Assembly: GCA_030599585.1 (NCBI GenBank)
Contig: JAUVNS010000001.1
Coordinates: 224,001 to 288,000, forward strand
Direction of reading: 5' to 3'
Source of the DNA: Promethearchaeota archaeon
GTDB taxonomy: Archaea; Asgardarchaeota; Lokiarchaeia; Sigyniarchaeales; SOKP01
DNA: 64,000 nt
In this document: in pieces, positions 27,121 through 46,180 of the stretch
Position numbering within the stretch: position 1 is the stretch's first letter
How the letters are laid out: each line of letters opens with the position of its first letter
Made by a program: the position numbers and the translations under genes
Notes under the pieces: generated by a model
Database searches by the model: none
What the model saw: the letters and a program-made list of their open reading frames with translations, nothing else
Told to the model about the DNA's origin: nothing

Positions 27121-27170
27121 GGAATTTTTTTTTAAATACTCAAAAAACTTCAACATAATTACTTACAAAG

Positions 27171-27443: not shown

Positions 27444-27584
27444 TAAGTTATTAAAAAAATAATAATTAAGATTTTAGCTTATTGTTTAAACCTGAGAAAA
27501 ACTTCAATTTTATACCAATTGACTTTTTATTTGAATATTTAGGATTTAATTATAAAGATATAGTTTTATAAAAAGGTTTTAATC

Positions 27585-27797
27585 ATGAGTTCTCAAACAG
27601 TAGAAAAAAAGGGACCAATTTTTCCTATTTACGATACATATATAGAAGATTCCATTAATTTTGATGATATCATAATTCCGTTTTCAGATTTTGTAATTTC
27701 AAAAAATCTTTCATATACTTATAATGGAGACGAAGATATCAACTTTAAAGAAAGACACCCTGTATATCAAAAACTTTTTTTAGATGAGTTTCTGTAG
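27585..27797 (+). CDS. Small hypothetical protein, paralog of 38 and 27171
   Basis: DIIIPFSD...YNGDEDINFKERHPVYQ...EF. Confidence 0.7.
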   Translation: MSSQTVEKKGPIFPIYDTYIEDSINFDDIIIPFSDFVISKNLSYTYNGDEDINFKERHPVYQKLFLDEFL

Positions 27798-27810
27798 AGT
27801 TTTCTGAAAC

Positions 27811-28323
27811 TTATCGTGAATAGTAGTAGTAGTCATCTTTCTTGATCACCATCCCACTTTTTTTAGCGTTTCTAATTAGGGTTTTTAATTCTATCGCAGG
27901 AATTCCATAATCTTCAGACATGATTTCGAGCATATACTTCGGAAACCGCTTGTAAAGTTTTGAAAGCTCAAACAACATCTCGGTAAACTTTTGCTTGTAA
28001 TCATTTTCTTGATTTTTGTTTTTCAAATCGTTTTTCCTGATTTTAGGTCTAACAACACTATGAGTAGCAACAACAAAATCGTTTCTCGAACGAAATTCCG
28101 GCGTTGCTAACTCGTTCTGTTTTCTTTTTACGGTATTCAAAGCTTCCGTCATGCCAGATACTACTTCACCTTTTTTCAATATATCTTGCACTTGGTGTTT
28201 TCTACCACATCTCAGACACTTTTTGGTCTTTTGAACGGTTTTTACATAGAAAAATCCCCCACACTTTTTGCATGCGAAGATTAGATATGGAGTTTCGTCT
28301 CTTTTAATCGTTAAATCTTCCAT
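27811..28323 (-). CDS. DUF1922-like zinc-ribbon protein with wHTH-like C-terminus
   Basis: YLIFACKKCG...KTKKCLRCGR. Confidence 0.7.
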   Translation of the reverse strand: MEDLTIKRDETPYLIFACKKCGGFFYVKTVQKTKKCLRCGRKHQVQDILKKGEVVSGMTEALNTVKRKQNELATPEFRSRNDFVVATHSVVRPKIRKNDLKNKNQENDYKQKFTEMLFELSKLYKRFPKYMLEIMSEDYGIPAIELKTLIRNAKKSGMVIKKDDYYYYSR

Positions 28324-28326
28324 TGA

Positions 28327-30579
28327 TTACAAAACACCTTCGTTTTTTACGTGTAGATAAATATTTTTTAGAATAAAATATAATTCTTCCGAAAGATCGA
28401 TGTTAATAGCTTGGAGTTTATTGTCATCACCCCAATCGGAGAACTTTTTCTTGAGTAACTTCTCTTCGTTGTCAAATTCTTGTTTAAAGTCTACAAAGTC
28501 GAAAACTGAGACGATAAGGTTATATTTTTTACTTAACAGAATATATTTTTTAAGAAGAGTATCTCCGTCAAATCCTCGAGGATCAATTATTTGGACCAAA
28601 ACTTTATCGAACAGGGTTAAATCAAGGATTGACTTTACGATTTCAAACGAAAACCCATCTTTATGAAATTTTTTCCTCAAACCAAATTTAACAGGGAAGG
28701 ATACGTTTATTTTGATGTCAGATTTAATTTTTTTTGGTTTGGGAGCGATCGATTTGCCCTGGGAAAAAGCGCTTAAACTCGATTGAATTTCTCTTTTATT
28801 ACGTACTTTGCTAATTTTTTTATTATTGTCAATGTTAACTTTTTTCTCGGAGGTAATTATTTTTTCCAACGGCCTCTCAATATATGAGAACTTAGGTTCA
28901 TTTTTTTCTACTTGAATATTTTTAAGTTCTTTAATTCTCGGTATATTTTGAGGCATCTTATTGGAATAGACTGTGTGTAGCTGTTTTTCGCCTTTCAAGT
29001 TCACATTCATCTTCTTGAGTTTAGTTAGGGCGATATGCATATATATTTCGTCGTGAGTGCCTTTACAATAAAGGATAATTACTTTTCCTTCGCGATGGCG
29101 AGCAGTCCTCCCTTTTCTCTGAATAAACCGAATTTCAGAAGCTACTACGTCGTAAAACACCACAAGATCGCACTCAGCGATATCCAACCCCTCCTCTCCT
29201 ACATTGGTGCTAACTAAAACATTGTATTGACCTCGTTTAAACTGCTCTAAAATCTCTAACTGTTGCTTCTGCGACATCCCCTTATCGTCTTGAGATTTTG
29301 TAGATTGACCCACAAATCGAGATGGTTTAATAGCGTTATTTTCGCTTGCTTTTAACTTGTGTACGATATTTTTAACTGAGTCGCGCAACTTTACGAACAC
29401 CAGTACACGAGAGCCAGGATTGTTTTCAAATTCTTGAATCAACAATGATTCGAGCGTGTAATATTTGGGATGGATGAGCTTTTGAGGAGAAAAATCTTCG
29501 TTCTTTTTCAGTTCAATAAATATTTGGTTTAGTCTGTGATCTCTGGCCAGAACTTTTAAGGCTTTAGAACTGGTTTTCTTGCGAGCCTTGGCTTTCATTT
29601 TGGTTAGGTAGATCAAAAGTACATCTAAACCTTGCTGTTCAATTAATTCAAGCATATGAAACAAAATTAACCCTTGAGCGTTTATGGAAAGCGCACTGTA
29701 GACCCCTGTTTTGTCTCCGTCGCTATTGACTAATCTAGTTAGTTCTCCGTTTAACTTTAATAAATCTTTTCGAATAATTTTAGTATGCAATTTTTCTGAC
29801 TTTGAATTTAGGAAGTTTAGCTGAGAAAGATATTGTAAGCGCACCTCCAAAAGAATTTGAACCGCATAGTATGCGTCGGCCATAAGTTCGGTTAAATTAA
29901 CGCCTATCTTATGTACATCCATTGGTTTTAGGTAATTTTTCACGTCTTCGTCTTTTCGAGTGCGAGTATGGATGTTCTCTAACGGAACATATAAATTTTC
30001 ACAAAGAGTCCTAATTTTTTCTTTGGAAGCACCTGGACTGGCCGTCAAACCTAAGATTACCCCATCCGGATTTTGTTCTACAAACTTATCTGCGATTAAT
30101 GTATAAGCGTAATCTTTGCTGGCGTGATGGGCCTCATCAAATATTACTAGACACGTGTGTTCTAAGGAATATTTTAAGTTCACCAAATCATTTCTTAAGG
30201 TTTGAGGCGTGTAAAATATTATCTGGTGGGTTTCGAACAGCTCCACTCTACTATCTGCAGGAGTTTTTCCCGTCAACACAACGAACTCATTTTCCGGAAT
30301 AGACATTAAATTTACAAATGATTCGTAATGCTGATTTATCAACGGTCTTGTAGGCGCTAACACGATAATTTTACTTTTCTCTGGGAATTTTTCTAAGGTA
30401 AGCGCTGCCACGAAGACGCCAATAATAGTTTTTCCCAGACCTGTAGGGAGGACGACTAGCGAATTTTTTGAAGCACAAGCTCTAGCTATTTTTAATTGGT
30501 AATCTCTTTTCTCGATGGATTTTTCTTTCAAGTAAGCGTTATTAATCATCGTTCTACCTTCTCTCTCGCTTTCGATCAC
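28327..30579 (-). CDS. Hef/FANCM-like SF2 helicase with degenerate C-terminal nuclease region
   Basis: RDYQ, LPTGLGKT, IFDEAHHA, GLTASPG, RFVGQ, GEEGLDI, QRKGRTAR; PIP-like QSSLSAF; no ERKxxxD. Confidence 0.9.
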   Translation of the reverse strand: MIESEREGRTMINNAYLKEKSIEKRDYQLKIARACASKNSLVVLPTGLGKTIIGVFVAALTLEKFPEKSKIIVLAPTRPLINQHYESFVNLMSIPENEFVVLTGKTPADSRVELFETHQIIFYTPQTLRNDLVNLKYSLEHTCLVIFDEAHHASKDYAYTLIADKFVEQNPDGVILGLTASPGASKEKIRTLCENLYVPLENIHTRTRKDEDVKNYLKPMDVHKIGVNLTELMADAYYAVQILLEVRLQYLSQLNFLNSKSEKLHTKIIRKDLLKLNGELTRLVNSDGDKTGVYSALSINAQGLILFHMLELIEQQGLDVLLIYLTKMKAKARKKTSSKALKVLARDHRLNQIFIELKKNEDFSPQKLIHPKYYTLESLLIQEFENNPGSRVLVFVKLRDSVKNIVHKLKASENNAIKPSRFVGQSTKSQDDKGMSQKQQLEILEQFKRGQYNVLVSTNVGEEGLDIAECDLVVFYDVVASEIRFIQRKGRTARHREGKVIILYCKGTHDEIYMHIALTKLKKMNVNLKGEKQLHTVYSNKMPQNIPRIKELKNIQVEKNEPKFSYIERPLEKIITSEKKVNIDNNKKISKVRNKREIQSSLSAFSQGKSIAPKPKKIKSDIKINVSFPVKFGLRKKFHKDGFSFEIVKSILDLTLFDKVLVQIIDPRGFDGDTLLKKYILLSKKYNLIVSVFDFVDFKQEFDNEEKLLKKKFSDWGDDNKLQAINIDLSEELYFILKNIYLHVKNEGVL

Positions 30580-30592
30580 ATCTCAGTCCCCT

Positions 30593-31168
30593 TTATACTA
30601 TTTGGATGATAAAGTCCTCAATCTCTAATTTTGATATAGCCTTTTTGCTTCGGTGGTAAGACTGGATGATCATCCCAGCCTCAACTGCTAGTTTTGAAGG
30701 ATAGATCAGACCATTTCCTCTATGTTCGAAAAAAAAAGGATGGGAACGGTTAAAGTGCTTTACTTTCTTAGAAAGTTCTGTTGTGTTTCTATTAATGTTG
30801 AAGCCCTTCCCAATCTTTACGTGTTGGAAATAATATATAATATCGCTCAATAAGTTCACTTGGGTTCGGTTGATCTCTACTTCTTTCAGGTCAGATAAAT
30901 CGTGAATTGAAACTTCGGATTTTGGTTTTAGAATTAAATAGCATTTATCTTCTCTCCACTTCTTACACAAAACAAAACCGGAAATCACAGAATTGAAAAG
31001 GTTCTGAAACCGAAACACGAGTTCTAACACCTCTTCTAAATCTCGCCCGGACATATTGAGGAAGTTGGCCAACTTATCAAGACTAAAGAGACTGTTTTTC
31101 CGAGTTTGGAACTTTTCCAAAGCTGAAACGATTTGATGTAATTGTTTAATTTTAGTACCTTGTGTCAT
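30593..31168 (-). CDS. Hypothetical protein, possible N-terminal HTH
   Basis: FSLDKLANFLNMSGRDLEEVLELV; first gene of the Hef operon. Confidence 0.65.
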   Translation of the reverse strand: MTQGTKIKQLHQIVSALEKFQTRKNSLFSLDKLANFLNMSGRDLEEVLELVFRFQNLFNSVISGFVLCKKWREDKCYLILKPKSEVSIHDLSDLKEVEINRTQVNLLSDIIYYFQHVKIGKGFNINRNTTELSKKVKHFNRSHPFFFEHRGNGLIYPSKLAVEAGMIIQSYHRSKKAISKLEIEDFIIQIV

Positions 31169-31188
31169 TACAGCTTATATTTATCGTA

Positions 31189-31205
31189 GTAATAAAAAGA
31201 AAAAA
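31189..31205 (-). promoter_or_regulatory. Pyrimidine-BRE/TATA element
   Basis: TTTTTTCTTTTTATTAC about 20 nt before ATG 31168. Confidence 0.5.
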
Positions 31206-31249
31206 TTTTATTGACGGAGAAAAAATGAAAAAAAAGGAGAAAAAACTAT

Positions 31250-34222
31250 TTATTTTTTTGAGGATTGCTTACTTTTGAATTTTTTAGAGCGAATTGCTTT
31301 ATAAGTACCAAGTAAAGGTATCGTAGCGGCGCCTACCATCCCGAATGCTAAAGGAAGGGTCACGGTAGCATCTCCCCCGTATAGGTTATTAGGATCGTCC
31401 TCAGGATCTGGGTCGGGATCTGGATCTGGATCCGGAGTGGTGTTAGGATCTTTGTAGTCAAAAGTAGCAGTGCAGATAAACTGAGGATTGGAGAGATAAG
31501 GATCGTTAAGGTAGAATTCAAAGGTATAGTTTCCGAAATAAATCGGTGAATAATTAAAAGTGAACATCGAGTTCTCTAAGTTGTGAGAGGTTAACAAATC
31601 GATAACATCCACGTAATCACCGTCGCGATATATATTGGCATACATCGAGCCTCCGAAAATTGGTTCGTTTCCTGAAATAAATATATGGCGCCCATAAACA
31701 TTAACTTCAATCCGAGATTCAGTCTTTGCGATCGAATAGGTAAACTGAGAATCAAATTCGGTGCTAAAAGAGAAAGGAACGCTTCCTTTTTTTATAGCAC
31801 CATCATACACACATAACTCCCCTTCGACAATCGGATAATTAGCTGTATCAATGGGGATATATACTTCTTTTTGATAGGTATAATTTCCTAATTGATCCAG
31901 TACGATATTTCCTAACTGTGCCGACTCGATTTTAACCGTGGTATATTGTCCAAAATCTGAAAGAATGAGATTTACAAGTTCAACAGTAAACAAATTGTTA
32001 CTTCCTAATCCAACTGTATCGTAATAAGAAGCGCTCAATCTCACATCGTCAGTTTTTGCTATTTCACAGAACCACATGAACACATCGTGATCCAGCTCTT
32101 TTCTTTCGGCCGATAAATAGAATTCGTTGTATGTATCAGAATAAATGCTTTGAACGAGCAAATGGGTTTGTTCAACATCGAAATTAATGTTCAGGTCCAA
32201 ATATTCCGAAATTTTGTAGCTGTAATAGAGATTTTTTGCGTTCGAATAGTTGAGATGGTTTACCACGAAATTTTTAATTTTAATGACATCCAAGCTAAAT
32301 TGATCGATAGCGTTTAAAACATATATAGCATAATATAAATTCTCTAAAGTTAATTCCACGTCGGCTGAATATTTGGAGTCAAAAAATAACTCAAGTGGAG
32401 TCTCTACAATATTTCTTACAATGTAAGTTGCCAGTGCGGTTTTATCGAACCCTAAATCAGCGAAATATTGTCCCGTTACATTTCCTAACCCTAGAAATTG
32501 GCTAATAATTTCCATTGTTTGTATAGCGTAATAAGAATACTTCAGGTAAACTAACTCGTTTTTCCACTCGGATGAAGACCCTATATTAATATTTATTAAA
32601 AAACCACCAAAGTTATCGGTATAGCTTGGATCAAGGAATTGAGAATTGACAACTTCTTGTAAAACAATATTGATATCAAATTGAGAGGCAAAGTCGTTTA
32701 ATTTAAAAATTTTCTTCAACGAGTCAAGAGATTTGAAAATATTTTGATGGGAGCCTATGGAATTTATTTCGTCCACGAATTCGTGGTATCCGGCGGTTTC
32801 ATAATCGAAAGGTTTCGAGCGAAAACTCGCCTTCTCCAAATCCATACCGGTGCAAGAAAAGAAATCGTAATTACCCCAACGTTCTACTACAGTACCTACG
32901 AGTAAATCGTATATCGATTGAATGTTAAGTTCTCCAATTTTCCCGAAGTACTCATATGATGACACTAAGCTGTGGATTAAGTCTACAGAAGTGTAATCCT
33001 CTGAAAGCAAAGAATATCCGCGTTCTTGAGCAAACAAGGCGATAAACGAAGAAATCTCGTCTTTATCACCTAATGACAATTCTAAGATTTCACCCGTGCC
33101 CGAAAGTGACCTTACAATTTGGAACGTGTCAATAAGTTCGTGATATTTCACTGAAGTTGAAGCTTCCCATCCCCCAAAATATTTTCGATTGTTAAGTAAA
33201 AAAGATTTGACCTCGCTTCTTTCAAAAGACCCAAAACCTGTCATATCTGCTAATTCTAAATTGATCGCTGTAGAAACTATATTAGAATAGTTATCCACCC
33301 ACATAGAATCTGAGATGTCAAAATAAGCCCCTTCAGAATGATATAATGTTGTAAGGTGCTGGTGAAACTTGGTTGTATCTATTATATCTATATAACTGCT
33401 TCCGAAAATTTCCAGAGTCTTTAAGCAATAATAAGAAGCAAATTGGTTCGGTTCTGGCTCCATTAGTGAGTCAAACAAGCCATCATTATCGTTATAAAAG
33501 CCCGTAGAAGAGCCCAACGATTGTAAACCGTCAATGTAGAACGTAATATCGCCCCTCTCCTGCGAGCGTAAATTCCAATCAACCCCTAAAGTATCTAAAG
33601 TAATTACGGCGTAATAGGTATTGTCGGCAGTAGGAATTTTAAATCCATCTTCTAACGAGTTATCGTAAGGTTGTCCAATAAATCCGTGTAGACCTTGATG
33701 ATAACAACTCCAAATAAAGTCAAGCATACTCGCAATATTTATTGAATTGACACTATTCAAGATTTCTAACGAAAGAACTGCGTAACAATTAACTTGTAAA
33801 AGCGTGGACAAAGGATAATATCTTCCCTCTATTTTTGAAGCAAAGTATCTCTGAGTGTTCTCGTCCGAAAAGATGTAAGAACTAGAGTTGTAAAACGACA
33901 AGATATAGTCGATTACCGCTTGTTGATCAATATCTCCCAGCTTTCCTATAGCGTCTAAAACATATAGCGCGTAATAAGTAGCTTGAAGAGAGCTAGAATA
34001 AATCTGAGGATAATAACCATAGGCAGCGTAATCGGCGTTTTTTGCATCAAAAACTGCTTGCAACATCTCCAGACTCGAGACATCAGAGGACTCCAGCAGG
34101 TCTAAATTCTCGTTTACTCTATCGCTAGGATTCGCAACAGATTTTATACCTATTGTAGAAAAATAAGCTAAAATTACAATTAAAACAACACTAACTAAAA
34201 CTTGGGGTTTTTTCCATTTCAT
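31250..34222 (-). CDS. Large surface protein with prenyltransferase/squalene-cyclase-type alpha-alpha barrel repeats
   Basis: Signal peptide; repeated (T/S)YYA..(T/V)L..(L/I)G units and GF/GGF turns; PD linker; TM and basic tail. Confidence 0.75.
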   Translation of the reverse strand: MKWKKPQVLVSVVLIVILAYFSTIGIKSVANPSDRVNENLDLLESSDVSSLEMLQAVFDAKNADYAAYGYYPQIYSSSLQATYYALYVLDAIGKLGDIDQQAVIDYILSFYNSSSYIFSDENTQRYFASKIEGRYYPLSTLLQVNCYAVLSLEILNSVNSINIASMLDFIWSCYHQGLHGFIGQPYDNSLEDGFKIPTADNTYYAVITLDTLGVDWNLRSQERGDITFYIDGLQSLGSSTGFYNDNDGLFDSLMEPEPNQFASYYCLKTLEIFGSSYIDIIDTTKFHQHLTTLYHSEGAYFDISDSMWVDNYSNIVSTAINLELADMTGFGSFERSEVKSFLLNNRKYFGGWEASTSVKYHELIDTFQIVRSLSGTGEILELSLGDKDEISSFIALFAQERGYSLLSEDYTSVDLIHSLVSSYEYFGKIGELNIQSIYDLLVGTVVERWGNYDFFSCTGMDLEKASFRSKPFDYETAGYHEFVDEINSIGSHQNIFKSLDSLKKIFKLNDFASQFDINIVLQEVVNSQFLDPSYTDNFGGFLININIGSSSEWKNELVYLKYSYYAIQTMEIISQFLGLGNVTGQYFADLGFDKTALATYIVRNIVETPLELFFDSKYSADVELTLENLYYAIYVLNAIDQFSLDVIKIKNFVVNHLNYSNAKNLYYSYKISEYLDLNINFDVEQTHLLVQSIYSDTYNEFYLSAERKELDHDVFMWFCEIAKTDDVRLSASYYDTVGLGSNNLFTVELVNLILSDFGQYTTVKIESAQLGNIVLDQLGNYTYQKEVYIPIDTANYPIVEGELCVYDGAIKKGSVPFSFSTEFDSQFTYSIAKTESRIEVNVYGRHIFISGNEPIFGGSMYANIYRDGDYVDVIDLLTSHNLENSMFTFNYSPIYFGNYTFEFYLNDPYLSNPQFICTATFDYKDPNTTPDPDPDPDPDPEDDPNNLYGGDATVTLPLAFGMVGAATIPLLGTYKAIRSKKFKSKQSSKK

Positions 34223-34275
34223 TATACTTCACGCAAAGTCTATTATAAAAGCTTTGCATTCCCCATCTACCAAAA

Positions 34276-34291
34276 TTATATAAAGAAAAAA
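34276..34291 (-). promoter_or_regulatory. Pyrimidine-BRE/TATA element
   Basis: TTTTTTCTTTATATAA; divergent region. Confidence 0.65.
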
Positions 34292-34415
34292 TTAGTGGTA
34301 TTAATTGAAAATTTCTTGGTTATGCCTTTAAACTTATAATAATGAAGGAAATCATTTAAATCCATTAATGAATGGAATAATACTAATTGATGATTAAAAA
34401 GAAATTTGGTTGTGA

Positions 34416-34922
34416 ATGAATATGGTTGTGCTATGGATAAAATGTCCCTATAATAATTCAGTAATAAATTTTGCTTCGAGGTTAGGTCTGATGGCTCTTG
34501 GTACCGTGGGGATAATCTTTTTCAATTTATGGGTTGCTGTCGTGTATTTGTTGTATTCTGTGTTGTTTAACTTTCTATTATTTCCGACTAAGCATTGTCA
34601 ATATTGTTATTACGCAGTAAAGGAAACTACAACCGATAGTAAGACAGGGAAGACTATTGAGAAACTATTACCTAAAGATCAATGGGTAGAATCATGTTTA
34701 GAGAAGCATGTAGAATGCGGGAAGAAATGGTCAAAAGGTTTTTACATCCTCTGGTTTGTTCCAATTATTTTATTAATCGTTTCGTTCTTCATTAGTTTTT
34801 CTGTGTTTGCTTTACTCTCTTTAATTGGCTTTATAGCAGTGTTAGCACTAATGCTGTATTATACTAGAATGAAAATCTGTCCAAGATGCGAAATTATGGA
34901 AGAATGCCATTCATCTTTTTAA
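34416..34922 (+). CDS. Cys-rich membrane protein
   Basis: 4 TM, HCQYCYY and CPRC..C motifs. Confidence 0.7.
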   Translation: MNMVVLWIKCPYNNSVINFASRLGLMALGTVGIIFFNLWVAVVYLLYSVLFNFLLFPTKHCQYCYYAVKETTTDSKTGKTIEKLLPKDQWVESCLEKHVECGKKWSKGFYILWFVPIILLIVSFFISFSVFALLSLIGFIAVLALMLYYTRMKICPRCEIMEECHSSF

Positions 34923-34929
34923 CCCTAAA

Positions 34930-35847
34930 TTGGTGAAAAAAATGGAAAAAATGAAAGCGATCGTATGCAAAAAATACGGATCTCCAGACGGTCTTCAACT
35001 TGAAGAGGTAGATAAACCTACCCCAAAGGACAACGAAGTTCTGATAAAAATTCATGCAACAACAGTAACCTTTGGGGACGCGATGCTTCGAAAGCTCAAA
35101 TTCCCTCTTAGATTAATATTTGGTCTCAGAAAAAATGGTATACTTGGGCACGAATTGGCGGGTGTAATTGAAGCAGTAGGTAAAGATGTGACAACTTTTA
35201 AGAAAGGTGACCAAATTTTTGCATCTACGGGTATGCGAGGGGGTACTCATGCCGAGTACATCTGCTTGCCTGAAGATGGACATATTGCAGTATAACCAGC
35301 AAACATGACCTACGAGGAAGCCGCTGCCGTTCCTGTTGGGGGAAATACAGCATTGGACATTCTTAAGAGGGGTAAGATCGAGAACGGACAAAAAGTCCTT
35401 ATCTATGGCGCTTCTGGAAGTGTAGGCACTTATGCGGTGCAACTTGCCAAGTACGCCTTTGGAGCAAATGTTACTGGAGTCTGTAGTACTACAAATCTAG
35501 AATTGGTGAAGTCTCTAGGAGCTGATAAGGTAATTGATTACACTAAGGAGGATTTTACCCAAAATAGTGAGAAATACGACGTTATCTTTGATGCTGTAAG
35601 AAAGCTTTCGTCCTCACGGAGTAAAAATTCGCTAAGGACAAACGGATCCTATCTCTCCGTTCGATCTTCCACAAAAGACAATGTTGAAAATTTAATTTTC
35701 CTCAAAGAACTTATTGAGCTGGGTAAGCTAAGAGCTGTTATAGATAAAACCTATCCATTTGAACAACTCCCCGATGCTCATAGGTATGTTGACAAAGGGC
35801 ACAAAAAAGGCAATGTAGTAATAACTGTGGAACATAACAGCAGTTAA
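34930..35847 (+). pseudogene. MDR-family NAD(P)-dependent oxidoreductase interrupted by an in-frame TAA
   Basis: [22 protein letters not shown]; both halves in the same frame, with GTA-TAA-CCA-GCA-AAC-ATG where the family has xKPxNM. Confidence 0.85.
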
Positions 35848-35931
35848 GAAATAGGGTTATCATCGTAAATTATAGAAAGAGTAAAAAAAAAATAAAAAAT
35901 AGAAATTTTGACATTCAATCAAAAGTCATCG

Positions 35932-37212
35932 TCAACAAAGCACGGGTGGACCCTTTGAATTGTAATATTTCCATAGTTCTACATTTACAAGCTCCTGTTC
36001 GTCAAGTATCTCGTTTTTGTCTGAAGCATAAAATTCTTTAGAGTTGAGTTGATGATTGGTGGTAAATTTATCTTGTTTATTGGTAATTGAGGCAACTAAA
36101 TACCCGCTTGCTTCTTTTATAAATAGAAGATGCTCTTTGCTCCCATTTAGGGAATTGTATACTTGATTAGCGTTTCCTAGTATTAATTGGACGATGTCGA
36201 CATTTTCAGGCGATTCTTCAATCGAAACTTCAATTGGATCGATAAAACCAGGGTCAAGCACGCCTAATTTTTGCATAACTTTTTTTAACAATACCGCCGA
36301 TTTTACAAGGGTTTTGAAACCAGGAACTTTAAACCTTTGAATGACTCGCCTCTCTACTTGCCGGTGAATCGTTGACATTTTAATCCCTAATTGGTCACAA
36401 ATTGCACATACGCTCACTTCTTTTTTCTGGGAGCAGAGGAGTGTAATAGAAGTCACTAATCCAACAATAACATCGTCTTTAGTGTTTTTAATTGAATCGT
36501 AAAACCTGTTTAATATCCGTCGTGATTGGTAGTAAAATGGCATACCTAATTTAAAGTGCTCACTCACTTCTAAAATCCGTTCGATTATGTATTGTTTGCG
36601 ATCGCGCTCTTGATATTCGGGCCATATGCGAATAATCGAGAATTTAAAGGCGTTAAAGTCTTTCTTTGAAATTTTTGAAACCTCTAATAGGTCTTTTTCG
36701 CGAACGGGCTTGTTATTCTCTTTGTAGTAAGCATAGATCACGCAAGGTACGAGCATTTCCGCACTTCTGTATTTAGTGCCCTTGCCTAATTGAGCGCGAT
36801 TCTCTTTAAATTTACCTAAAATTACATTAAAATCATTGAGTGAGAAACCTAAAGCGGTTAATATCCTTTTAATCTCAACCTTAGCTGTGATTAAGACATT
36901 TTCTTCAGTCGAACGAGACGCATCAATCCGACTGAGCCCTTCTAACTTGGCAGAATATTGTGATTTACGCCTTTCGGATTTGAAACCAATCTGAGTTTTA
37001 CTTAATACCGCATGTTGAACGACGTCAGCATCGTAGGGCCTATGATATTCTAACTTTTGTGCCTCTAACACTATCCCGCATTCTCGGCAAGTAAATCCTT
37101 CGTGAGTTTCCACAATATCCTGTGATCCACAGATATCACACTGGTAAAATGGATCAAACATAGAAATCGTCTTTAACGATTTTGCTTTATCCATGTTTTT
37201 GGTTGTTGCCAT
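35932..37212 (-). CDS. Divergent transcription initiation factor B (TFB) paralog
   Basis: Zn ribbon CDICGS...TCRECGIVL, AKVEIKRILTALG, two cyclin-like repeats, C-terminal HTH, about 100-aa tail. Confidence 0.82.
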   Translation of the reverse strand: MATTKNMDKAKSLKTISMFDPFYQCDICGSQDIVETHEGFTCRECGIVLEAQKLEYHRPYDADVVQHAVLSKTQIGFKSERRKSQYSAKLEGLSRIDASRSTEENVLITAKVEIKRILTALGFSLNDFNVILGKFKENRAQLGKGTKYRSAEMLVPCVIYAYYKENNKPVREKDLLEVSKISKKDFNAFKFSIIRIWPEYQERDRKQYIIERILEVSEHFKLGMPFYYQSRRILNRFYDSIKNTKDDVIVGLVTSITLLCSQKKEVSVCAICDQLGIKMSTIHRQVERRVIQRFKVPGFKTLVKSAVLLKKVMQKLGVLDPGFIDPIEVSIEESPENVDIVQLILGNANQVYNSLNGSKEHLLFIKEASGYLVASITNKQDKFTTNHQLNSKEFYASDKNEILDEQELVNVELWKYYNSKGPPVLC

Positions 37213-37842
37213 TTTTTTCCAACTTTTTTATAATTTTTTTGAAAAATATCGATTATATTTTAATTACAAAGAATAAAGATCACCAGTTTGCTTTATGAAG
37301 ATATGGTTTTATGAAAAATCTCTAAAATTGTGGGATATAATCAAATGAATAGCGAAAAATAAAGCTGAATCGGTAAATAAACTTTAATTAATTCATGGGT
37401 TAATATGATAACATTCTACATGTAGAAGATTAAGCATGTATTTTTTCATCAAAATCACAATTTCGCAATTTTATTCCGAACAAGGAGAATTTTTGAATCG
37501 CAGGTGCTGAGGTTACAGCCTAAATAAGGAATATGAAGAGATTTGTAATGGAAATTTTGATTAAATACATATATTTATTTGTCTTTTAATCTGAATATAT
37601 CAATAATAACAATAGATTTAGAACTCAACTGAATTAAAGATAATTTTAATAGATTTTTGAAATTGGGTTAATTATCTTCGACTTTTCTTAAGTCTCCCGT
37701 TGAAAGTTCTTTATTGAAACTCACTTTTATTCTTACATTTATCTTATCCATAAATTTCTTTTTAAACACCTCTTAAAATTAATGTTTAGTCTAATGAGGA
37801 AATCAAAGAAAGAGTTAATTTATCACTTTTTTTGACATTAAA

Positions 37843-37858
37843 TTTTTCTTTTAAATAC
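37843..37858 (+). promoter_or_regulatory. Pyrimidine-BRE/TATA element
   Basis: TTTTTCTTTTAAATAC 26 nt before ATG 37885; divergent from TFB. Confidence 0.7.
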
Positions 37859-37884
37859 ATTCCAATAATAGTAAAGATATAATC

Positions 37885-38652
37885 ATGATTGAATTGTATT
37901 TTTGGCTTCTCGTTATGTTAGGGTTTTCGATGTTGGCTCAGATTTTTTACCGCTATGCCCGAACACCTGGATATAAAGCGGTGTTTAATGTCATAGCTTT
38001 CATTGGAATAGCTGTTCACGAGATGGCCCACTATACACTGGGAACATTATTCGGTGCGAATCCCAGTAAAATGCGGGTGAAATATCGAAGCGATGATAAA
38101 TCAATAGTTGCTCCCCACGGATCAGTCAAATTTCCGGAGATCCAACGATCTTCACTCTTGCAGATTTTTACGATTAGTTTTGCTCCTTTATTGGTATCCA
38201 CATTTCTATTAATGCTTTGCTTGGATGTAATCTTTAACATACAGACCGAATTGTGGGTAAAAGTGGTAGCAATAGTTTTCAGCATCTCGTTAATTATTGG
38301 CTCTGAACCATCAGGTCAAGATATCAAGCAAATAGGCTATTCCTTTCAAAGAGATCCTCGTTATTCTGCTTATCAAATATTCCTGCTAGTGTTATCAGGA
38401 GTATTGGTGTGGTTATTTGTAGATATATATTATTTTGCTCTTCCTTTTGAGGTACTTTATTATATCGGATATTTTATTGTTCTCACTTCTTTTTACTTTA
38501 CGCTGAAAGGAACTTTTTGGATAGTTGGTAGAACTGCTAAAGGAATAGCCAAGAAAATGGGAAAAGTTCAGGTGGCGAGTCCGAAATTTCTTACTCGAAG
38601 GAGGAGGTTTATACACATAAAAGACCCAAACGAAAGAGAGGTGCAATGGTAA
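37885..38652 (+). CDS. Membrane zinc metalloprotease, M50B-like
   Basis: VHEMAH (HExxH), ISFAPL, PSGQD, multiple TM. Confidence 0.75.
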   Translation: MIELYFWLLVMLGFSMLAQIFYRYARTPGYKAVFNVIAFIGIAVHEMAHYTLGTLFGANPSKMRVKYRSDDKSIVAPHGSVKFPEIQRSSLLQIFTISFAPLLVSTFLLMLCLDVIFNIQTELWVKVVAIVFSISLIIGSEPSGQDIKQIGYSFQRDPRYSAYQIFLLVLSGVLVWLFVDIYYFALPFEVLYYIGYFIVLTSFYFTLKGTFWIVGRTAKGIAKKMGKVQVASPKFLTRRRRFIHIKDPNEREVQW

Positions 38653-38999
38653 ATATGAAAGGATTTTGCTTAATCGCAATAGCAGTTGCGATGTTAATGT
38701 TCTACCAGAAGGAACCATTTTACACGGTAATTATTATCGGTATTGGGGTGGTAATCTATTTCGTTTACAAGGCGAAAAAAAACGGAAATGGGTTGCTCGG
38801 AGCGTTTTTTAGCGGAAATCAGTCTCCTCAAGATAGTAGACTAGACGATTTAATTGCTTTAATGATGCTCCAACAACTCTCCTCGACTAACTCCCAGAGC
38901 AGCAACGCCACTCAACAGATTTCCGAACAAGCTCGAAAACGACGGGAAGCAATCGATAAGACTCAAAAAGAAGTGTTAGACCTATTGAGCAGTGATTAA
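38646..38999 (+). CDS. Small membrane protein with coiled tail
   Basis: 2 N-terminal TM; overlaps upstream gene. Confidence 0.7.
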   Translation: MVNMKGFCLIAIAVAMLMFYQKEPFYTVIIIGIGVVIYFVYKAKKNGNGLLGAFFSGNQSPQDSRLDDLIALMMLQQLSSTNSQSSNATQQISEQARKRREAIDKTQKEVLDLLSSD

Positions 39000-39005
39000 A
39001 ACGCG

Positions 39006-39719
39006 ATGGAGCCAAGTGATCCTTTCAACATTACTTCTCTGTTCGATCTACTAAGGGAACGAAGAATAATCTCAATTTCGGGAGCGTCAAGCACGGGCAA
39101 AACGACATTAGCGCTTCAATTAGTTGCGTCTGTACTAAGTAGCGAGGATAATATCGATGAATGTTGCGTCTGGATACAGGCTAGCGAGCAATTCCCTAAA
39201 AAGCGACTCCACACTTTTTTTAAAAGTTCTCCTGGCAAGTTCGACTACCTCGTAAAAAAAATCTTTTTATATCCAGTGACGTCTCCTTTTTTGAGTTACG
39301 AAGATCAATCAGCCTTTTTAACAACAATAGGAAGTATTATCTTACCTTTTAACACCAAATATTTAGTAATCGACAACATCTCGCACCACTTACGGCTTGC
39401 CTCTTCTTGTTGTTCTAATTTCAAGCAAAAAACTGCGCTATTAGACAGATTTTTTAGCGCTCAACTGTTTCCCCTCATTATGCGCTGTCTAAGGGAAAAA
39501 ATCGTTCTAATTCTAATACACGAGGTCTCTTTTAACCCTAAATTGGGAAAGAATCAACCATTTTTTAATAAGTTGTATTCGAGGATCAACAGCGTAAATG
39601 TTAGTTTATCGAAGCCATTTAATTCCAAGACTAAGCGTATGAAAGTCGTATCGAAAAACAACAAGATCACGAGCGAGCTGAAATATCAAATCTTAGAAAG
39701 AGGGATTTCTTTAGTTTAG
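39006..39719 (+). CDS. RadB/Rad51-paralog-like RecA-fold ATPase
   Basis: SGASSTGKTT, VWIQASEQF, LVIDNIS; no N-terminal HhH. Confidence 0.75.
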   Translation: MEPSDPFNITSLFDLLRERRIISISGASSTGKTTLALQLVASVLSSEDNIDECCVWIQASEQFPKKRLHTFFKSSPGKFDYLVKKIFLYPVTSPFLSYEDQSAFLTTIGSIILPFNTKYLVIDNISHHLRLASSCCSNFKQKTALLDRFFSAQLFPLIMRCLREKIVLILIHEVSFNPKLGKNQPFFNKLYSRINSVNVSLSKPFNSKTKRMKVVSKNNKITSELKYQILERGISLV

Positions 39720-39765
39720 TATTAGGTCGTTATATAAAGCAAAAATTTTGCCATCCGATTTTTCC

Positions 39766-39780
39766 TTTTCCTTTAAATAG
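39766..39780 (+). promoter_or_regulatory. Pyrimidine-BRE/TATA element
   Basis: TTTTCCTTTAAATAG 21 nt before ATG 39802. Confidence 0.6.
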
Positions 39781-39801
39781 CTCTATTTTATAAGTATTAC
39801 G

Positions 39802-40188
39802 ATGATGATCAACACACCTGATCCTAAAATTTCTAATCAAATTAAATGTTCCATTTGCCGTGTCGACATTAAAGATCGCCACACATTGTATCAATCGAGC
39901 TTGAAATTGGGTGTGATCTGCAAACTTTGCCGAGAACGATTCTCTGAAGACGATATCGAGATGATCGTTAACATGTTTTTTGCGTTTGGTGGATTTTTTG
40001 GCCAATTCGAAAAATCCAAGTTTTCCATAGACGATACCATCGTAGAATTTGCAGAACAATTGGACACTAGCAACTCGACCTTTCACTTACAGAATGTGAA
40101 GATGTGGCACAAAATATTAACCCACGGTATCGCTCCTAAAGAGTTTTTAAGTGAGTTATCTACGTACATTGATCAAGGTTTTTTTTAG
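39802..40188 (+). CDS. CxxC..CxxC zinc-binding hypothetical protein, paralog of 10046
   Basis: CSIC...CKLC and NMFFAFGGFFG, HGIAP. Confidence 0.75.
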   Translation: MMINTPDPKISNQIKCSICRVDIKDRHTLYQSSLKLGVICKLCRERFSEDDIEMIVNMFFAFGGFFGQFEKSKFSIDDTIVEFAEQLDTSNSTFHLQNVKMWHKILTHGIAPKEFLSELSTYIDQGFF

Positions 40189-40306
40189 AGAAAAAAGAAT
40201 CTTAACTGATAACATAATTTTTATATTGATTTCTATCTCACTTCTATATTAACGATAATTAAATTATGATTCATAAATATTAATCGATTTATTTTTAAAA
40301 ATCAAG

Positions 40307-40702
40307 ATGTCAGACGAAGAACTCAGTAAGCAAATTACTAAAATAGCAGTAGAAATTGAGAAAGTGGACCAGACAGCGAAACAAAAAAAAAACTACTTTA
40401 CAAATAAATGTGATGAGGAATATGATCCTAAAATCAAGGATGTTGGGGAACGGTTGCTACATCACCAAACCGAATTAAATGAACTCCTCAAAAATCTTAA
40501 TGAATTAACAGCGAAAAAGAAGGAATTACTCACTATTACAAAGAAATTGGAATCAGAATACAACTCCTTGATAAAAGAGAAGGAAAAAATCTTTAACCAG
40601 AATATTAAAGCAATTGAAAAAGAAAGGAAAAGTAAAACGAAGGACATTGATACCAAAATTAAATTACTAGAGAAAGAATTGAAAACAAGTGAAAAAAAAT
40701 AA
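40307..40702 (+). CDS. Coiled-coil protein
   Basis: K/E-rich heptad pattern throughout. Confidence 0.7.
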   Translation: MSDEELSKQITKIAVEIEKVDQTAKQKKNYFTNKCDEEYDPKIKDVGERLLHHQTELNELLKNLNELTAKKKELLTITKKLESEYNSLIKEKEKIFNQNIKAIEKERKSKTKDIDTKIKLLEKELKTSEKK

Positions 40703-40774
40703 GCTTGTAGAGATTAAAGGGATAGAACATTCTAACGGGGATTTTTTATTTATAGAGATGATTAAAAAAAAAAG

Positions 40775-41113
40775 TTAAAGAAGTTTTGTTTCGGTTTTAG
40801 GCGTTGGAGTTTTTATAACCAAGAATCGAAAACTTGCTTCAGATTCGTTTAATAACGTGTGAACGATTTTGGCCGGACTAAAAATTAATTGATCTTTTTT
40901 CACAGTTTCTCTTTCTTTTCCGATCTCGACGATACCTTCACCTTCAAGAACGTAAAAAGTCACGTCTACCGGCGTTATATGCCTTTTGAGAGCTTCACCC
41001 GGCTTTAATTCGATATGTACGATTGTTGCGTGCTCAAAATTCATTAATTTTTTCACAGCTACTTTATGTACGGTGTCCGCAATCTGAACGTCTTTTGTAG
41101 TAATAATTTTCAT
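40775..41113 (-). CDS. Cupin domain protein
   Basis: LKPGE..RH, FYVLEGEG, P...H.L.N. Confidence 0.88.
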   Translation of the reverse strand: MKIITTKDVQIADTVHKVAVKKLMNFEHATIVHIELKPGEALKRHITPVDVTFYVLEGEGIVEIGKERETVKKDQLIFSPAKIVHTLLNESEASFRFLVIKTPTPKTETKLL

Positions 41114-41297
41114 TTTATTTTAACCTAAATTTTCGAGTTATTTTATGATATTCTATATAAATTGATTTACAATATAAGGTTTAAAGTGAACATCTTCGAA
41201 GCGAAACTAATTCATAATCCAATATTTAAAGAATAATTGATAAATGAAGGTTTATTCTAAAACCATTAAAAAAAAAGAAATTTGGGAAGAAAAAATC

Positions 41298-41867
41298 TTA
41301 TTTATGATATTCGATTGTTAGTTGGTTATATAGTTGTAGGTCATAGACTTCAAATGCGTCAGAAATGGAATGGCATCGGATTGTAAAATTATCTAAACCA
41401 TTGCTTTTTACATATACAGAAGACTGAGTTTGATAAGCCGACGAAATCGGATTATCAGTCATCGCAATCCTAACAAAGCTGTGATCGACAACATTATTTC
41501 TTAAAAGACGAACATAATATATCGTCGAAGGTTCAACACTATTCAGGAGTAAGAGAAGTGTAATTTTGTAAAAACCCTCCTCTATTAATTTAAAACTTGT
41601 ATTATTATTGCTTACTTCGATATAATTAGAATTATTAAACTGGTTATTGCCAACTTCAATAAGCCAGGAGTGATCAAATATGTATGGGGCGTATTCTTTA
41701 TTCGTTGCTAAATCATCCCATAATCCTACGAGAATCAGTCCACTATCTGGAGATGTGGTTCCAGGAGTAATAAGTATTTCACTCGTGACGAACATATATC
41801 CGCTTAAACCTAAAGAAGCAATAGCGATGATCCCCAAAAGAAGCATCGCACCTTTTCTTTCACTCAT
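41298..41867 (-). CDS. Membrane-anchored beta-sandwich protein
   Basis: N-terminal anchor, EEGFYKI beta-rich domain. Confidence 0.65.
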   Translation of the reverse strand: MSERKGAMLLLGIIAIASLGLSGYMFVTSEILITPGTTSPDSGLILVGLWDDLATNKEYAPYIFDHSWLIEVGNNQFNNSNYIEVSNNNTSFKLIEEGFYKITLLLLLNSVEPSTIYYVRLLRNNVVDHSFVRIAMTDNPISSAYQTQSSVYVKSNGLDNFTIRCHSISDAFEVYDLQLYNQLTIEYHK

Positions 41868-42053
41868 GTTTTTCTATTCACTTTTTTCTTATTATTTTTA
41901 TATAGATAGTAATAACTATTGCTATTTGTTATTAATAAAGATTTCAACATTCTAAAAATAGAAGCTTCAAGCAAAAGAAAAAAAGAAATTGTTAAACGAG
42001 AATTAATAAAAAAAAAGTGGAAAGTGAAACTTTTCCATAATTGAGAATTTTAT

Positions 42054-44030
42054 CTATAGAATTATGATTGGTGGTGGATCGGGGTCATCAGGTGCTTCTT
42101 GGATAGATACAGATGAATCGAACGAGTATTGTATCCCTGCTCCATTTGTTACTATTATCAAAATGACATGTACACCAAGAGTATCCGGTACAGGAATGTG
42201 TTCGTAAATTTTAGAACCCAATCCTCCTAAATTAGTTTCAAAAACGTACGTGACCTCATCAATTTTAATTGTTACTTCTTCAATCCCCGAGTCTGGATCT
42301 CCGACTTCTACTAACCATTCTCCAGGATCTTCATCTGTTGCTTCCCCAGAGTAATCAAGATAAATTGTTGGCGGGGATATATCTATACCAAATATTGGAT
42401 CAAAGATAATTTCTTTTATTTCCACATAATAGCTAGATTCTTGGTCTCCCTCATAGTCATTGTCGTTATTAATTGAAATAACCTCTATCATGTGAGATCC
42501 AATAGAAGTAGGAGTTATAACTCCTCCAGTTTCCCCAGTATAAGAAATTGATAGTATACCGCCTAGATTTTCATCATGGATCATTTCAAAACCATTAACT
42601 AAAATAAGTACGTCATCAATCCCCGATTCAACATCAGTAATATATACATTCCACCACCCAGGATCGTAATCTGTTCCTGATCCGACATACAAAACTTCTA
42701 TTGTTGGTGGAGTAGTGTCATCGTCCTCTATATGTGTAGTAAGAGTTTCTTCGATCCAAAAATCTCCATATTTGGCTGCTACTTTAATGAAATGGTCACC
42801 TGCCAAAATTGGAAGAGCAAATCTAAAAGACCATGAATGTATTGGTGTTTGAAACTGTTCATGAATTTGTGGAAAAGGATTACTACCCACATAGATCACC
42901 ACTTCCATAAGATGAGCACCAATTACATCCACTAACCAAGCGCCGGTGTCAAAATCCATTCCTGATCCTTCATAAACAATCGAAATTAATGGATAATAAG
43001 GTTCTATTTCTACTGAATCAGCTATGGTTCGTTCTAATCCACTTAAATTCTTAACTTTTACTACAATTGAGTGAGTTCCTAGTTCAATTGGGACAGAAAA
43101 TAGATAATCAATTACAGATGTAATGCCATTAAGATCTTTTTCATATATTTTTATTAACCCATCAACGAAAATTTCAACTTCATCAACCCCGGATTCACTA
43201 TCCTCAATAGAAACGATCCAATCACCTGGGTTGATTTCATTATTTTCACCTTGATACACAATATTAATTATAGGAGCTGTTGTATCTTCTAAAATTTCAA
43301 CCCAATCAGTTTCTGTAGCTATTTCTTGATCCCATTCGTGATCATTATCATCGTTTATCGCAGTTACGACAATCATGTGTGTATTTATTACAAGTGGTAA
43401 TGGGATATCATTATAGGTTAGTGATAAGAGCCCTCCTAAATTCTGATCGTTTATGTAGACAATTCCATTAATTTCTATTAAAACCTCATTAATTCCAGAT
43501 TCAAGATCTTCGATGACTATGTGCCATACCCCTAAATTGGCTAAGTAATGCCCTCCTTCATATATTATTGAAATTGTTGGTGGAGTCTTATCATCATCAT
43601 AAACTGAGAATGGATTAATTTGGTCTAAAATTAGATCACATTCAATAATGAAATTTGCTCTTAAATTGCTACAAGTAACCCAGGCTTGATCATAAACTCC
43701 ATTTCCCCAAGGAATTCCATGTTCGTCTTGCTTTAATCCTGTTAATTTAGGTTTGATATCGTGGAGTAGTTTATTATATGCTTCCTTGAAATTCTCTTCT
43801 TCGATCAATTGCTGTAATTCAGTTAATTTGTTACAAATAGTTGATTTCCTGTTTTGAGCTGGTTTTTTCCAAGAATCTTCAGGGGAGTTACGAATCGTCT
43901 CCTTAAATTCTTCTATAGTAAAAGTGAAATCGTCCGTCGTTGCTTTTCCGAATGTTATGAATGAGCCAAATACAAAAATAGTTAAAATTGCTAAAAGAAT
44001 GTAACTTTCCTTATTTACTCTTGTTTTCAT
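42054..44030 (-). CDS. Secreted protein with about five Ig-like repeats
   Basis: Signal peptide; repeats D.T.P.I.I.Y.G....PG.W.V.I.D.ESGI.EV. Confidence 0.8.
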   Translation of the reverse strand: MKTRVNKESYILLAILTIFVFGSFITFGKATTDDFTFTIEEFKETIRNSPEDSWKKPAQNRKSTICNKLTELQQLIEEENFKEAYNKLLHDIKPKLTGLKQDEHGIPWGNGVYDQAWVTCSNLRANFIIECDLILDQINPFSVYDDDKTPPTISIIYEGGHYLANLGVWHIVIEDLESGINEVLIEINGIVYINDQNLGGLLSLTYNDIPLPLVINTHMIVVTAINDDNDHEWDQEIATETDWVEILEDTTAPIINIVYQGENNEINPGDWIVSIEDSESGVDEVEIFVDGLIKIYEKDLNGITSVIDYLFSVPIELGTHSIVVKVKNLSGLERTIADSVEIEPYYPLISIVYEGSGMDFDTGAWLVDVIGAHLMEVVIYVGSNPFPQIHEQFQTPIHSWSFRFALPILAGDHFIKVAAKYGDFWIEETLTTHIEDDDTTPPTIEVLYVGSGTDYDPGWWNVYITDVESGIDDVLILVNGFEMIHDENLGGILSISYTGETGGVITPTSIGSHMIEVISINNDNDYEGDQESSYYVEIKEIIFDPIFGIDISPPTIYLDYSGEATDEDPGEWLVEVGDPDSGIEEVTIKIDEVTYVFETNLGGLGSKIYEHIPVPDTLGVHVILIIVTNGAGIQYSFDSSVSIQEAPDDPDPPPIIIL

Positions 44031-44231
44031 TTTAATTTCGCCTAAAATTTATGTTAGATTATGAATAATTATCACAAACTATTATTTAACATTTTTGTTA
44101 AAAAACGAGCGATATATTAATTAGAAAGGATAAAAATTGTTTTTGAAATTATGGAATCGGGTTGTTTAAAGAATTATTCATAAATAGTCAATCCAAGTTA
44201 TATGAAGAGAGTAAAAAAAAAGAAAAAAAAT

Positions 44232-44738
44232 TTAGGGTGTTGGCAAAGATGCAAGTACGCTTGTATATGCACTTAGGAACAAAACTGCTAACCCAGTAAG
44301 AACATTCAACATTAATGTGAGCATATTGAGCGTCTGATTCTGTTTTGGAGTGAATTTTTTAACTCTATCCACAATTAAACTGCGGAACACACTTAAAGTT
44401 ATCATAACAAAGTATAATATGTGTTTGATACTCAAGAGAGTCGAATATTCCGTTCCAAAGCTCAAGAAGCCCGTATACAAACCAGATGCCGCGGCTTGTC
44501 TTGCCATAAAGAACCCGGTAATTATCAAACCAGCCATACTAATGTAGGTTAACAAACTAAGCTTTTTCTTTATCAAAGCATTTAACGCTTTAGTTTCTTT
44601 GGATTTACCAAGAATTTTCCTGACTGCAGGTAAAACGGAAAATGCGAGCGCCAACATGCCTCCAATCCACATCGCAGTAAATGTACTGTGGAGGAAGGAA
44701 ATCAACACTGGAGCTATTACAGCACTTATAGGAACCAT
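44232..44738 (-). CDS. CopD-like membrane protein
   Basis: FLH...AMWIGG, ITG, LSIKH. Confidence 0.7.
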   Translation of the reverse strand: MVPISAVIAPVLISFLHSTFTAMWIGGMLALAFSVLPAVRKILGKSKETKALNALIKKKLSLLTYISMAGLIITGFFMARQAAASGLYTGFLSFGTEYSTLLSIKHILYFVMITLSVFRSLIVDRVKKFTPKQNQTLNMLTLMLNVLTGLAVLFLSAYTSVLASLPTP

Positions 44739-44950
44739 AATGATCGTTTAATATTTTATTTTTATTTTAATTGATATTTAATTAACTAAAATTAATCAAC
44801 TCATAATTTTGTTTTCCTTTACGGGTAAAGTTTTTTTGAAAACGACTTTTTTGGTATAAATACTTTAGCTTACCAGTAAAGGGATAAATTTGACTTCAAT
44901 TACTTATTCAAATTTATTACCTAAACTACAAATAAATAGAGATTCTCAAG

Positions 44951-45790: not shown

Positions 45791-45951
45791 TTGAATTCAA
45801 CTTTTTTTGATCTTTTTTTTCATTTCTATTTATAAATATTTGGGTTATCTGTTTATCCATGCCTTTGATACAAACAAGCTATTTTTGAATTAATTCTTTA
45901 TAGAAATTCTTTATTATTATGAGTATATATCGTTAGAAGATCGGTAATAGC

Positions 45952-46083: not shown

Positions 46084-46180
46084 CACTATTTTCATCTTTC
46101 TTTTTCCAATTTCGTTAGAAGAGTTAGAATTTTTTATCTTATTTATTAAATTATAAAAATCAAATCTTTTCCGAATCTAT

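Follow-up and report, generated by a model that had tools for sequence, protein, structure and literature searches.

A divergent TFB paralog and a T-tract promoter in a Lokiarchaeial genomic island: a candidate island-encoded initiation factor

Introduction

The closest described system to the locus reported here is TFB3 of Sulfolobus with the Ups and Ced genes. In Sulfolobales, this TFB paralog is co-distributed with genes for DNA exchange and recombination, including one for a VirB4/HerA-like protein (PMC6101594, PMC11823120). TFB3 is truncated, has no helix-turn-helix (HTH) and acts together with TFB1 (PMC6101594, PMC11823120). A coiled coil and induction by DNA damage are further traits of its class, and Ced/Ted import involves an active VirB4/HerA-type ATPase along with a CedA channel and pilins.

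A sigma-like role of archaeal TFB paralogs has long been a matter of debate. In bacteria, ComX/SigX and phage late sigma factors are expressed from a housekeeping promoter and then activate private promoters of genes for DNA uptake and recombination or of the genes of an element. The canonical archaeal BRE is A-rich and is read by a helix in the second repeat of TFB (PMC7289017). Expansion of TFB paralogs has given some promoter selectivity, and the paralogs tested in the literature show little or partial selectivity or serve as co-activators (PMC6101594, PMC7289017, bioRxiv 10.64898/2026.09.06.749720). Across T. kodakarensis, P. furiosus, haloarchaea and Sulfolobus, selectivity is either absent, partial, or combined with similar BREs and different spacing (same sources): T. 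kodakarensis TFB1 and TFB2 have no promoter selectivity (PMC6101594), and the BREs served by Sulfolobus TFB2 are similar ones. Asgard viruses and mobile elements also provide TFBs carried on accessory DNA (bioRxiv 10.1101/2021.07.29.453957, PMC13700489), with no private promoter described for them.

Here, we analyze a TFB paralog, named TfbX, in a 64,000-nucleotide stretch of a Promethearchaeota archaeon contig (the window), together with the island that carries it. Our literature searches found no paper on the TfbX clade or its island, nor did we find a described case in which a BRE has gone from purine to pyrimidine together with a rewritten helix.

Identification and fold of TfbX

The 426-aa open reading frame contains both of the sequence stretches quoted in the earlier note on this DNA and spans the full length of its homologues (100% coverage), the named ones being Lokiarchaeota/Promethearchaeota proteins mostly annotated as 'hypothetical'. 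Searches with Pfam TFIIB, NCBIfam and PDB sequences missed its cyclin repeats, and the sole signal from sequence libraries was a weak match to Pfam Zn_Ribbon_TF (E 6.7e-5, below cut-off), so that its identity as a TFB needed testing. A first model from close homologues had a pLDDT of 59, while a later one from 71 divergent homologues is mostly above 90 across residues 100–320. The best structural match to this model is P. woesei TFB from the TBP/BRE complex (1d3u_B; Z 17.1, rmsd 2.5 Å over 196 residues, 14% identity), which outranks Brf1 (Z 15.2), Brf2 (Z 13.2) and cyclins, and the two modelled repeats have the TFB arrangement, that of the DNA-bound domains in 1d3u. The TfbX family profile retrieves canonical TFBs at E 1e-14 to 1e-19, and its alignment with a canonical TFB of the same genome has a probability of 96%, with homology over the ribbon and repeat 1. 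All four Zn-ribbon cysteines are invariant among the 71 divergent homologues, in a family whose mean column identity is 26%. Judged by modelled fold and profile, TfbX is a real, very divergent TFB paralog and not a TFB3. The earlier note was thus right that the Zn ribbon and both cyclin repeats are present, the repeats being visible by structure and not by Pfam.

TfbX shares with canonical TFB/TFIIB the Zn ribbon, the B-linker, the arrangement of the cyclin repeats and the HTH in repeat 2 (Table 1). It differs in having no Pfam TFIIB match, a shorter B-reader, a rewritten recognition helix and GKxP loop, and a C-terminal extension of ~130 aa. The extension, comprising a conserved helix (residues 296–318) and a tail of ~110 aa ending in KGPP, had been omitted from the earlier description. 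PP ends the tail in 66 of the 71 homologues. Whereas the remainder of the tail drifts, the terminal KGPP or KDPP persists, and only four proteins of this genome share such an ending; it may be a tag for partner binding or degradation. We disfavour KGPP as a ribosome-arrest motif because the bacterial RAPP/RGPP motifs require Arg (PMC12992588) and because the gene downstream of tfbX usually lies at a distance of 50–290 nt and in many cases is convergent or has a promoter of its own. Like TfbX, Brf1 and Brf2 of TFIIIB have a TFIIB-like core, a reader of low conservation and an extended C-terminus, which in Brf1/Brf2 includes a TBP-anchor domain. The TfbX tail, which is poorly modelled, did not align with theirs; TfbX had no match to the Pfam BRF1 domain, and no look-alike of the tail was found in the Atlas. 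A redox cysteine like that of Brf2 is not supported, with a terminal Cys in 9 of the 71 homologues.

Table 1. Position, strand and basis of assignment of the features in the window
Feature	Position	Strand	Basis or remark
Island	10046..64000	.	continues about 6.6 kb beyond window end
VirB4/HerA-like protein, 1257 aa	15515..19288	-	feature-level likeness to DUF87/HerA/TrwB clusters
Predicted T-tract promoter, membrane operon including VirB4/HerA-like protein	20950..20969	-	matrix
Predicted back-to-back T-tract promoters: HhH membrane protein (-), Hel308-like helicase (+)	22808..22969	.	matrix
Predicted T-tract promoter, three-gene Hef helicase unit	31188..31207	-	matrix
Predicted T-tract promoter, 990-aa prenyltransferase-fold membrane protein	34274..34293	-	matrix
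tfbX, divergent TFB paralog, 426 aa	35932..37212	-	ORF, homologues, model, structure match, profile
C-terminal extension: helix 296–318, acidic linker, predicted beta hairpin, terminal KGPP (35944–35955)	35935..36327	-	
Cyclin repeat 2, about residues 203–295	36328..36606	-	model, alignment
Rewritten BRE-recognition HTH, residues 266–292	36337..36417	-	homologue and paralog alignment
Cyclin repeat 1, about residues 100–200	36613..36915	-	model, alignment
B-linker strand and helix, residues 73–99, retained	36916..36996	-	alignment to human TFIIB (8s5n_M) from residue 80 onwards
Shortened B-reader remnant, residues 52–72	36997..37059	-	16–17 aa below canonical length
Zn ribbon C25, C28, C42, C45	37078..37140	-	invariant Cys; presumed RNA-polymerase dock contact, from TFB biology (PMC7289017)
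Predicted tfbX promoter	37283..37307	-	TATA-like box 37292–37299, no T-tract
Predicted T-tract promoter, divergent protease-like/RadB-like operon	37841..37860	+	matrix
Predicted T-tract promoter and second RadA with C-terminal HhH domain	46771..48082	+	matrix
FEN1-like, unknown and RPA-like genes, own predicted T-tract promoter each	54198..57057	+	matrix
Predicted T-tract promoter, 177-aa protein, small GTPase, 389-aa protein	58512..61007	+	matrix

The BRE-reading helix and the B-reader

The canonical BRE helix has the pattern Gln ... Val-Thr-x-Arg-x-Arg, and in each of the ten Pfam-positive TFBs encoded by this genome the helix retains Gln...Thr-x-Arg-x-Arg. At the canonical helix positions, which we take to be base-contacting, TfbX has V268, S280, H283 and Q285; its helix aligned without a gap, supported by the family consensus and by a continuous helix in the model. 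Several helix residues are kept among the 71 homologues (M279 in 59, S280 in 65, T281 in 60, Q285 in 61), and the BRE helix of TfbX, as read from these alignments, is rewritten yet nearly invariant across the family. The departure of the C-terminal HTH from the canonical helix noticed earlier therefore stands against all ten paralogs. C272, in the first helix of the HTH (at about 36397–36399), is Cys in 71 of 71 homologues.

The earlier note had also seen a special trait in the missing B-reader motif EWRxF. The motif is indeed absent; as it occurs in only 3 of the 10 canonical paralogs of this genome (seven lack EW), its loss is not the distinguishing mark of TfbX. In P. furiosus, TFB2 has a degenerate B-reader. 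What sets TfbX apart in the alignments is the length of the region: 31 residues separate the Zn ribbon from the B-linker strand, compared with 47–48 in six paralogs and 41 in three. The B-reader, which is modelled with low confidence, thus appears 16–17 residues shorter while the B-linker is retained, and T73, G76, E80 and R81 of the linker are each conserved in at least 90% of homologues.

Canonical TFB contacts TBP through the second basic residue of KKEIGR and through the GKxP loop. Both positions are changed in TfbX. The G-R-S loop in repeat 1 has a conserved, basic three-residue insert (GTKYRS), and a conserved NTKD replaces the GKxP loop in repeat 2. A co-activator mode like that of TFB3 is possible on account of these altered loops. 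A prediction of the TBP–TfbX complex without DNA gave no answer (score 0.00) and carries no weight either way.

The genome encodes ten Pfam-positive TFBs, two more divergent TFBs, three TfbX, three fusions of the TfbX cyclin pair, and three ordinary TBPs; counted as full TFB-like genes there are at least 15 in this genome (G000), and two of the three TBP genes are in tandem. Proteins that have the cyclin pair of TfbX but lack the Zn ribbon are found in G000 (C9:326327-327781, C9:334104-335963 and C10:6298-8076) and in L076–L081, either fused to HTH-like or multi-Zn-finger parts or solitary (232 aa). These derivatives keep the BRE helix, and most of them, all but C10:6298-8076 in the G000/L076–L081 set, are under a T-tract promoter (described below). 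Their neighbours include genes for an mTERF-repeat protein and for an XPD-like helicase that have the motif. A second very divergent TFB lies outside the window at C20:159422-160387 (part in L011), 0.9 kb from a canonical TFB gene. This C20 paralog was found in 51 of 57 genomes of the family and in 0 of 19 others of the order, and its helix is closer to the canonical one, with Gln and the first Arg kept.

The T-tract promoter

A motif matrix trained on other genomes, with this genome excluded, has the consensus T5–6, C, then TTTAWATA. At a threshold of 13 bits, it matches upstream of 79 of the 228 island genes and 37 of the 3826 other genes of this genome. The latter count equals the antisense background of 37, which puts the enrichment in island genes at about 35-fold. 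The window holds 20 sites of at least 13 bits. In 21 loci outside the training set, the motif precedes 164 of 190 island genes that lead a unit, in comparison with 21 of 199 non-island neighbours. Genes internal to operons mostly lack it (10 of 162). Start codons peak 29–30 nt after the first T of the TATA box, and the T-tract stands at a fixed distance from both the TATA box and the start. Two positions outside the trained columns are also biased: a purine at +13 (82–94% of sites, control 56%) and an initiator-like purine at +29 in leadered genes (80%, control 49%). Another set of +13 values, skewed by the way its sites had been selected, was left aside. The C at -1 is present in about 70–100% of sites in most clades. 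As about half of the sites (124 of 237) point away from the upstream gene, the sequence pattern shows these T-tract-C-TATA sites to be genuine core promoters that place the start about 29 nt past the beginning of the TATA box, and the reading as terminators is rejected on this orientation. The T-tract BRE is, in sequence, the pyrimidine opposite of the canonical A-rich one. A de novo search for enriched k-mers across all genes was dominated by the AT bias, and host promoters overall gave no clear BRE logo with crude start calls.

Among the genes shared by all island copies, tfbX stands alone in heading its unit every time while lacking the motif without exception (0 of 41 tfbX promoters). The canonical BRE consensus is RNWAAW. 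Of the 43 tfbX promoters, 25 could be aligned; in BRE columns left unconstrained by the alignment, a purine occupies -6 in 21 of them, and A occupies -4 in 22 and -3 in 24. Most alignable tfbX promoters thus carry what looks in sequence like the canonical A-rich BRE, with a conserved AAACT(G/C)(G/C) downstream of the TATA box. The BRE of the copy in the window is a weak match to the A-rich form of its relatives. In L048, L052, L054, L046 and others, an imperfect palindrome (GAGAAGAAGC..TTCT) stands 25–30 bp upstream of the tfbX TATA box as a candidate site for an upstream regulator; it is absent from the window copy. A motif-free tfbX promoter together with motif-bearing short derivatives is, on paper, the wiring of an entry switch.

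The island and its genomic setting

We detected TfbX in 53 of the 68 genomes of the Lokiarchaeia family to which the host belongs and, among 29 other families sampled, in none at a comparable score. A distant relative of 423 aa with a different helix occurs in the sister family (L128:386-1657, G288) near a distant VirB4-like gene, and it may possibly represent a sister system with another promoter.

The gene sits inside a syntenic island of 45–60 kb with a block of about 30 genes, between whose units unrelated genes without the motif are found. The island encodes second copies of RadA, RadB, Hef, Hel308, FEN1 and RPA, whose housekeeping copies are elsewhere in the genome and nearly all without the island promoter. 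It also holds an HhH membrane protein, a small GTPase, membrane proteins and the VirB4/HerA-like membrane operon. The VirB4-like gene co-occurs with tfbX, in many cases no more than about 20 kb from it. Walker A (GKT/S) is absent from all 24 copies of the VirB4/HerA-like protein, a difference from the Ced/Ted counterpart, and the three island membrane proteins scanned had no membrane-domain match in Pfam.

Other island genes extend this inventory. A ThiF-like, two GNAT-like and one B12 radical-SAM gene (14225–15091 and L157:1790-6710) are likewise under the T-tract promoter, and a CoiA-like nuclease (10590–11411, plus strand) and a second Alba (58017–58328, minus strand) lie in the island without a clear T-tract promoter. 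An alcohol-dehydrogenase-like gene in two reading frames (121 and 180 aa; 34930–35847, plus strand), convergent with tfbX, is unrelated cargo that differs between island copies. In G159, three dispersed relatives of a 345-aa island membrane protein (L102, L104 and L105) stand among unrelated accessory genes, each with a perfect T-tract promoter.

The island is inserted between otherwise syntenic host genes at a site that differs among genomes. It has no tyrosine integrase, such integrases occurring only on other contigs, and the TfbX tree follows host genus (g1 100/98, g2 94/98). By gene order and tree it is best described as dispensable, apparently inherited within genera and able to relocate or duplicate. 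At its left edge the depth is even in the probable source run, with no informative joint. This assembly has three TfbX-bearing island copies and pieces of more, some of which may come from co-binned relatives given an assembly contamination of 8.9%. Around the extra copies in G000 are mosaic, mutually similar accessory contigs (C12, C23, C32 end, C38, C49, C51 and C19), a pool that includes an Mre11/Rad50/HerA-like cluster and, on C32, an integrase. The island RadA is split into two reading frames at C12:52364-53657 and C49:49424-50693 and is a single one in the window.

Co-occurrence of TfbX and the motif

The mean number of exact motifs is 14.5 in 40 TfbX-positive and 7.0 in 11 TfbX-negative genomes of the family, with a backwards control near 5; the genomes are kin, hence the counts are not independent and we give their p-value no weight. 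Five sister-family genomes have one to three exact motifs each. In G213, a closed sister-family genome of 4.4 Mb, neither TfbX nor the motif was seen, so that there may be no cultured native host. The correlation across genomes named as a check in the earlier note thus appears as a strong trend with exceptions, and the refutation posed there, a motif that persists without this TFB clade, is not cleanly escaped: at least seven draft genomes, most of them fragmented, have island genes and in most cases motif sites while TfbX was not found (G159, G168, G234, G252, G267, G150 and G138; the island pieces of G267, G138, G234 and G252 were assessed by match positions only). In G267 the usual neighbours of tfbX are adjacent on one contig with no room for the gene, which may be elsewhere in the genome or lost. 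Orphan TfbX copies away from islands are found in other genomes.

Helix and promoter vary together to some extent. Clades with His283 have C at -2 in 33–44% of sites, in comparison with 7–21% for Gln283, and gene by gene this C is higher in 13 of 22 genes and lower in six; two other helix variants accompany a relaxed -1 position. Such co-variation is weak, amounts to one to three events and is confounded with kinship.

Discussion

We consider it probable that TfbX is an island-encoded alternative initiation factor, with host TFB transcribing tfbX and with TfbX and TBP reading the T-tract promoters. From its sequence, tfbX would be transcribed by host TFB from an ordinary A-rich BRE/TATA promoter upon some signal; the fold then suggests that TfbX pairs with host TBP at the TATA box and brings in RNA polymerase through its Zn ribbon and B-linker. 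In the key step, the rewritten helix would read T5–6-C directly upstream of TTTAWATA, a sequence that the canonical helix should read poorly, so that the island promoters alone would fire. Transcripts would come from core promoters whose sequence pattern puts the start some 29 nt beyond the first T of the TATA box, and gene content suggests a second recombination toolkit and a membrane complex as the output. In this manner the island TFB probably switches on all island genes, like a bacterial alternative sigma factor. The likeness is one of shared logic and an analogy only, as the folds are unrelated and TfbX would need TBP.

The changed specificity proposed earlier as a cause of the T-rich BRE gains partial support from sequence patterns, in that the motif is island-specific, the TfbX clade travels with the island and tfbX is motif-free. 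As for the sigma-like role, the predicted regulon is one island and a few strays, and a genome-wide programme is not borne out. TfbX further differs from TFB3 in its full length with both repeats and in lying inside the gene cluster, with targets that have a different BRE and with a VirB4-like protein that lacks Walker A. From the TFBs of Asgard viruses and mobile elements, judging by their descriptions, it is set apart by its proposed private promoter, by an island in which no tyrosine integrase was seen and by a tree that follows host genera.

An unlikely alternative, though the foremost of those considered, is that a chromosomal TFB, most plausibly the C20 paralog, reads the T-tract promoters and that TfbX has a different task on the island. 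The C20 gene has the breadth for this, since the family genomes that carry it include those with island pieces and no TfbX; yet Gln and the first Arg persist in its helix, it also occurs in G144 and G183, two genomes with only background levels of the motif and in which searches missed three island genes, and it leaves the retention of TfbX on the island, the invariant new helix and the different promoter of tfbX unexplained. Slightly less credit goes to a TfbX that works like Sulfolobus TFB3, as a co-activator on a complex of TBP and canonical TFB, with the T-tract serving as a poor BRE that keeps the promoters silent in the absence of TfbX. TFB3 is a precedent with the same kind of target genes (PMC6101594), the TBP-contact loops and B-reader are altered in TfbX, and an invariant T-tract fits a silencing role. 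However, TFB3 lacks the HTH (PMC6101594) whereas TfbX keeps both repeats and conserved surface residues on the helix, and silencing alone would not need the C at -1.

Another island protein could instead read the T-tract, such as the 191-aa protein (30593–31168) or the Zn-ribbon protein (27811–28323), or TfbX or its derivatives could repress. We regard this as improbable: both proteins are conserved island genes and derivatives without the Zn ribbon but with the BRE helix exist, yet these two genes and most of the short derivatives are themselves under a T-tract promoter and cannot start the cascade, and full-length TfbX keeps the Zn ribbon and B-linker that recruit polymerase. Archaeal terminators are U-tracts and the window is AT-rich, from which one might take the T-tract for a terminator or compositional noise and TfbX for a drifting paralog. 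This is disfavoured as the least credible reading, against the 124 of 237 sites that face away from the upstream gene, the fixed spacing to TATA box and start, the enrichment in island genes and a helix nearly invariant in a family of such low column identity.

With TfbX as the island's own initiation factor, the output judged from gene content is most likely an inducible programme of DNA exchange and recombination. It is conceivable, though on balance doubtful, that the system goes further and has a fully orthogonal BRE code, a sigma equivalent for a competence- or mating-like programme with its own recombinases, a dead VirB4-like scaffold and feedback by the short derivatives. In TfbX, both halves of a recognition code, helix and BRE, appear to have changed together, and the about 20 natural target promoters of each island are material for a direct in vitro test. 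If the proposed role is true, TfbX and its promoters would equip archaeal genetics with an orthogonal pair of promoter and factor. They would also be the first regulatory handle on a candidate programme of DNA exchange in those archaea that are closest to eukaryotes.
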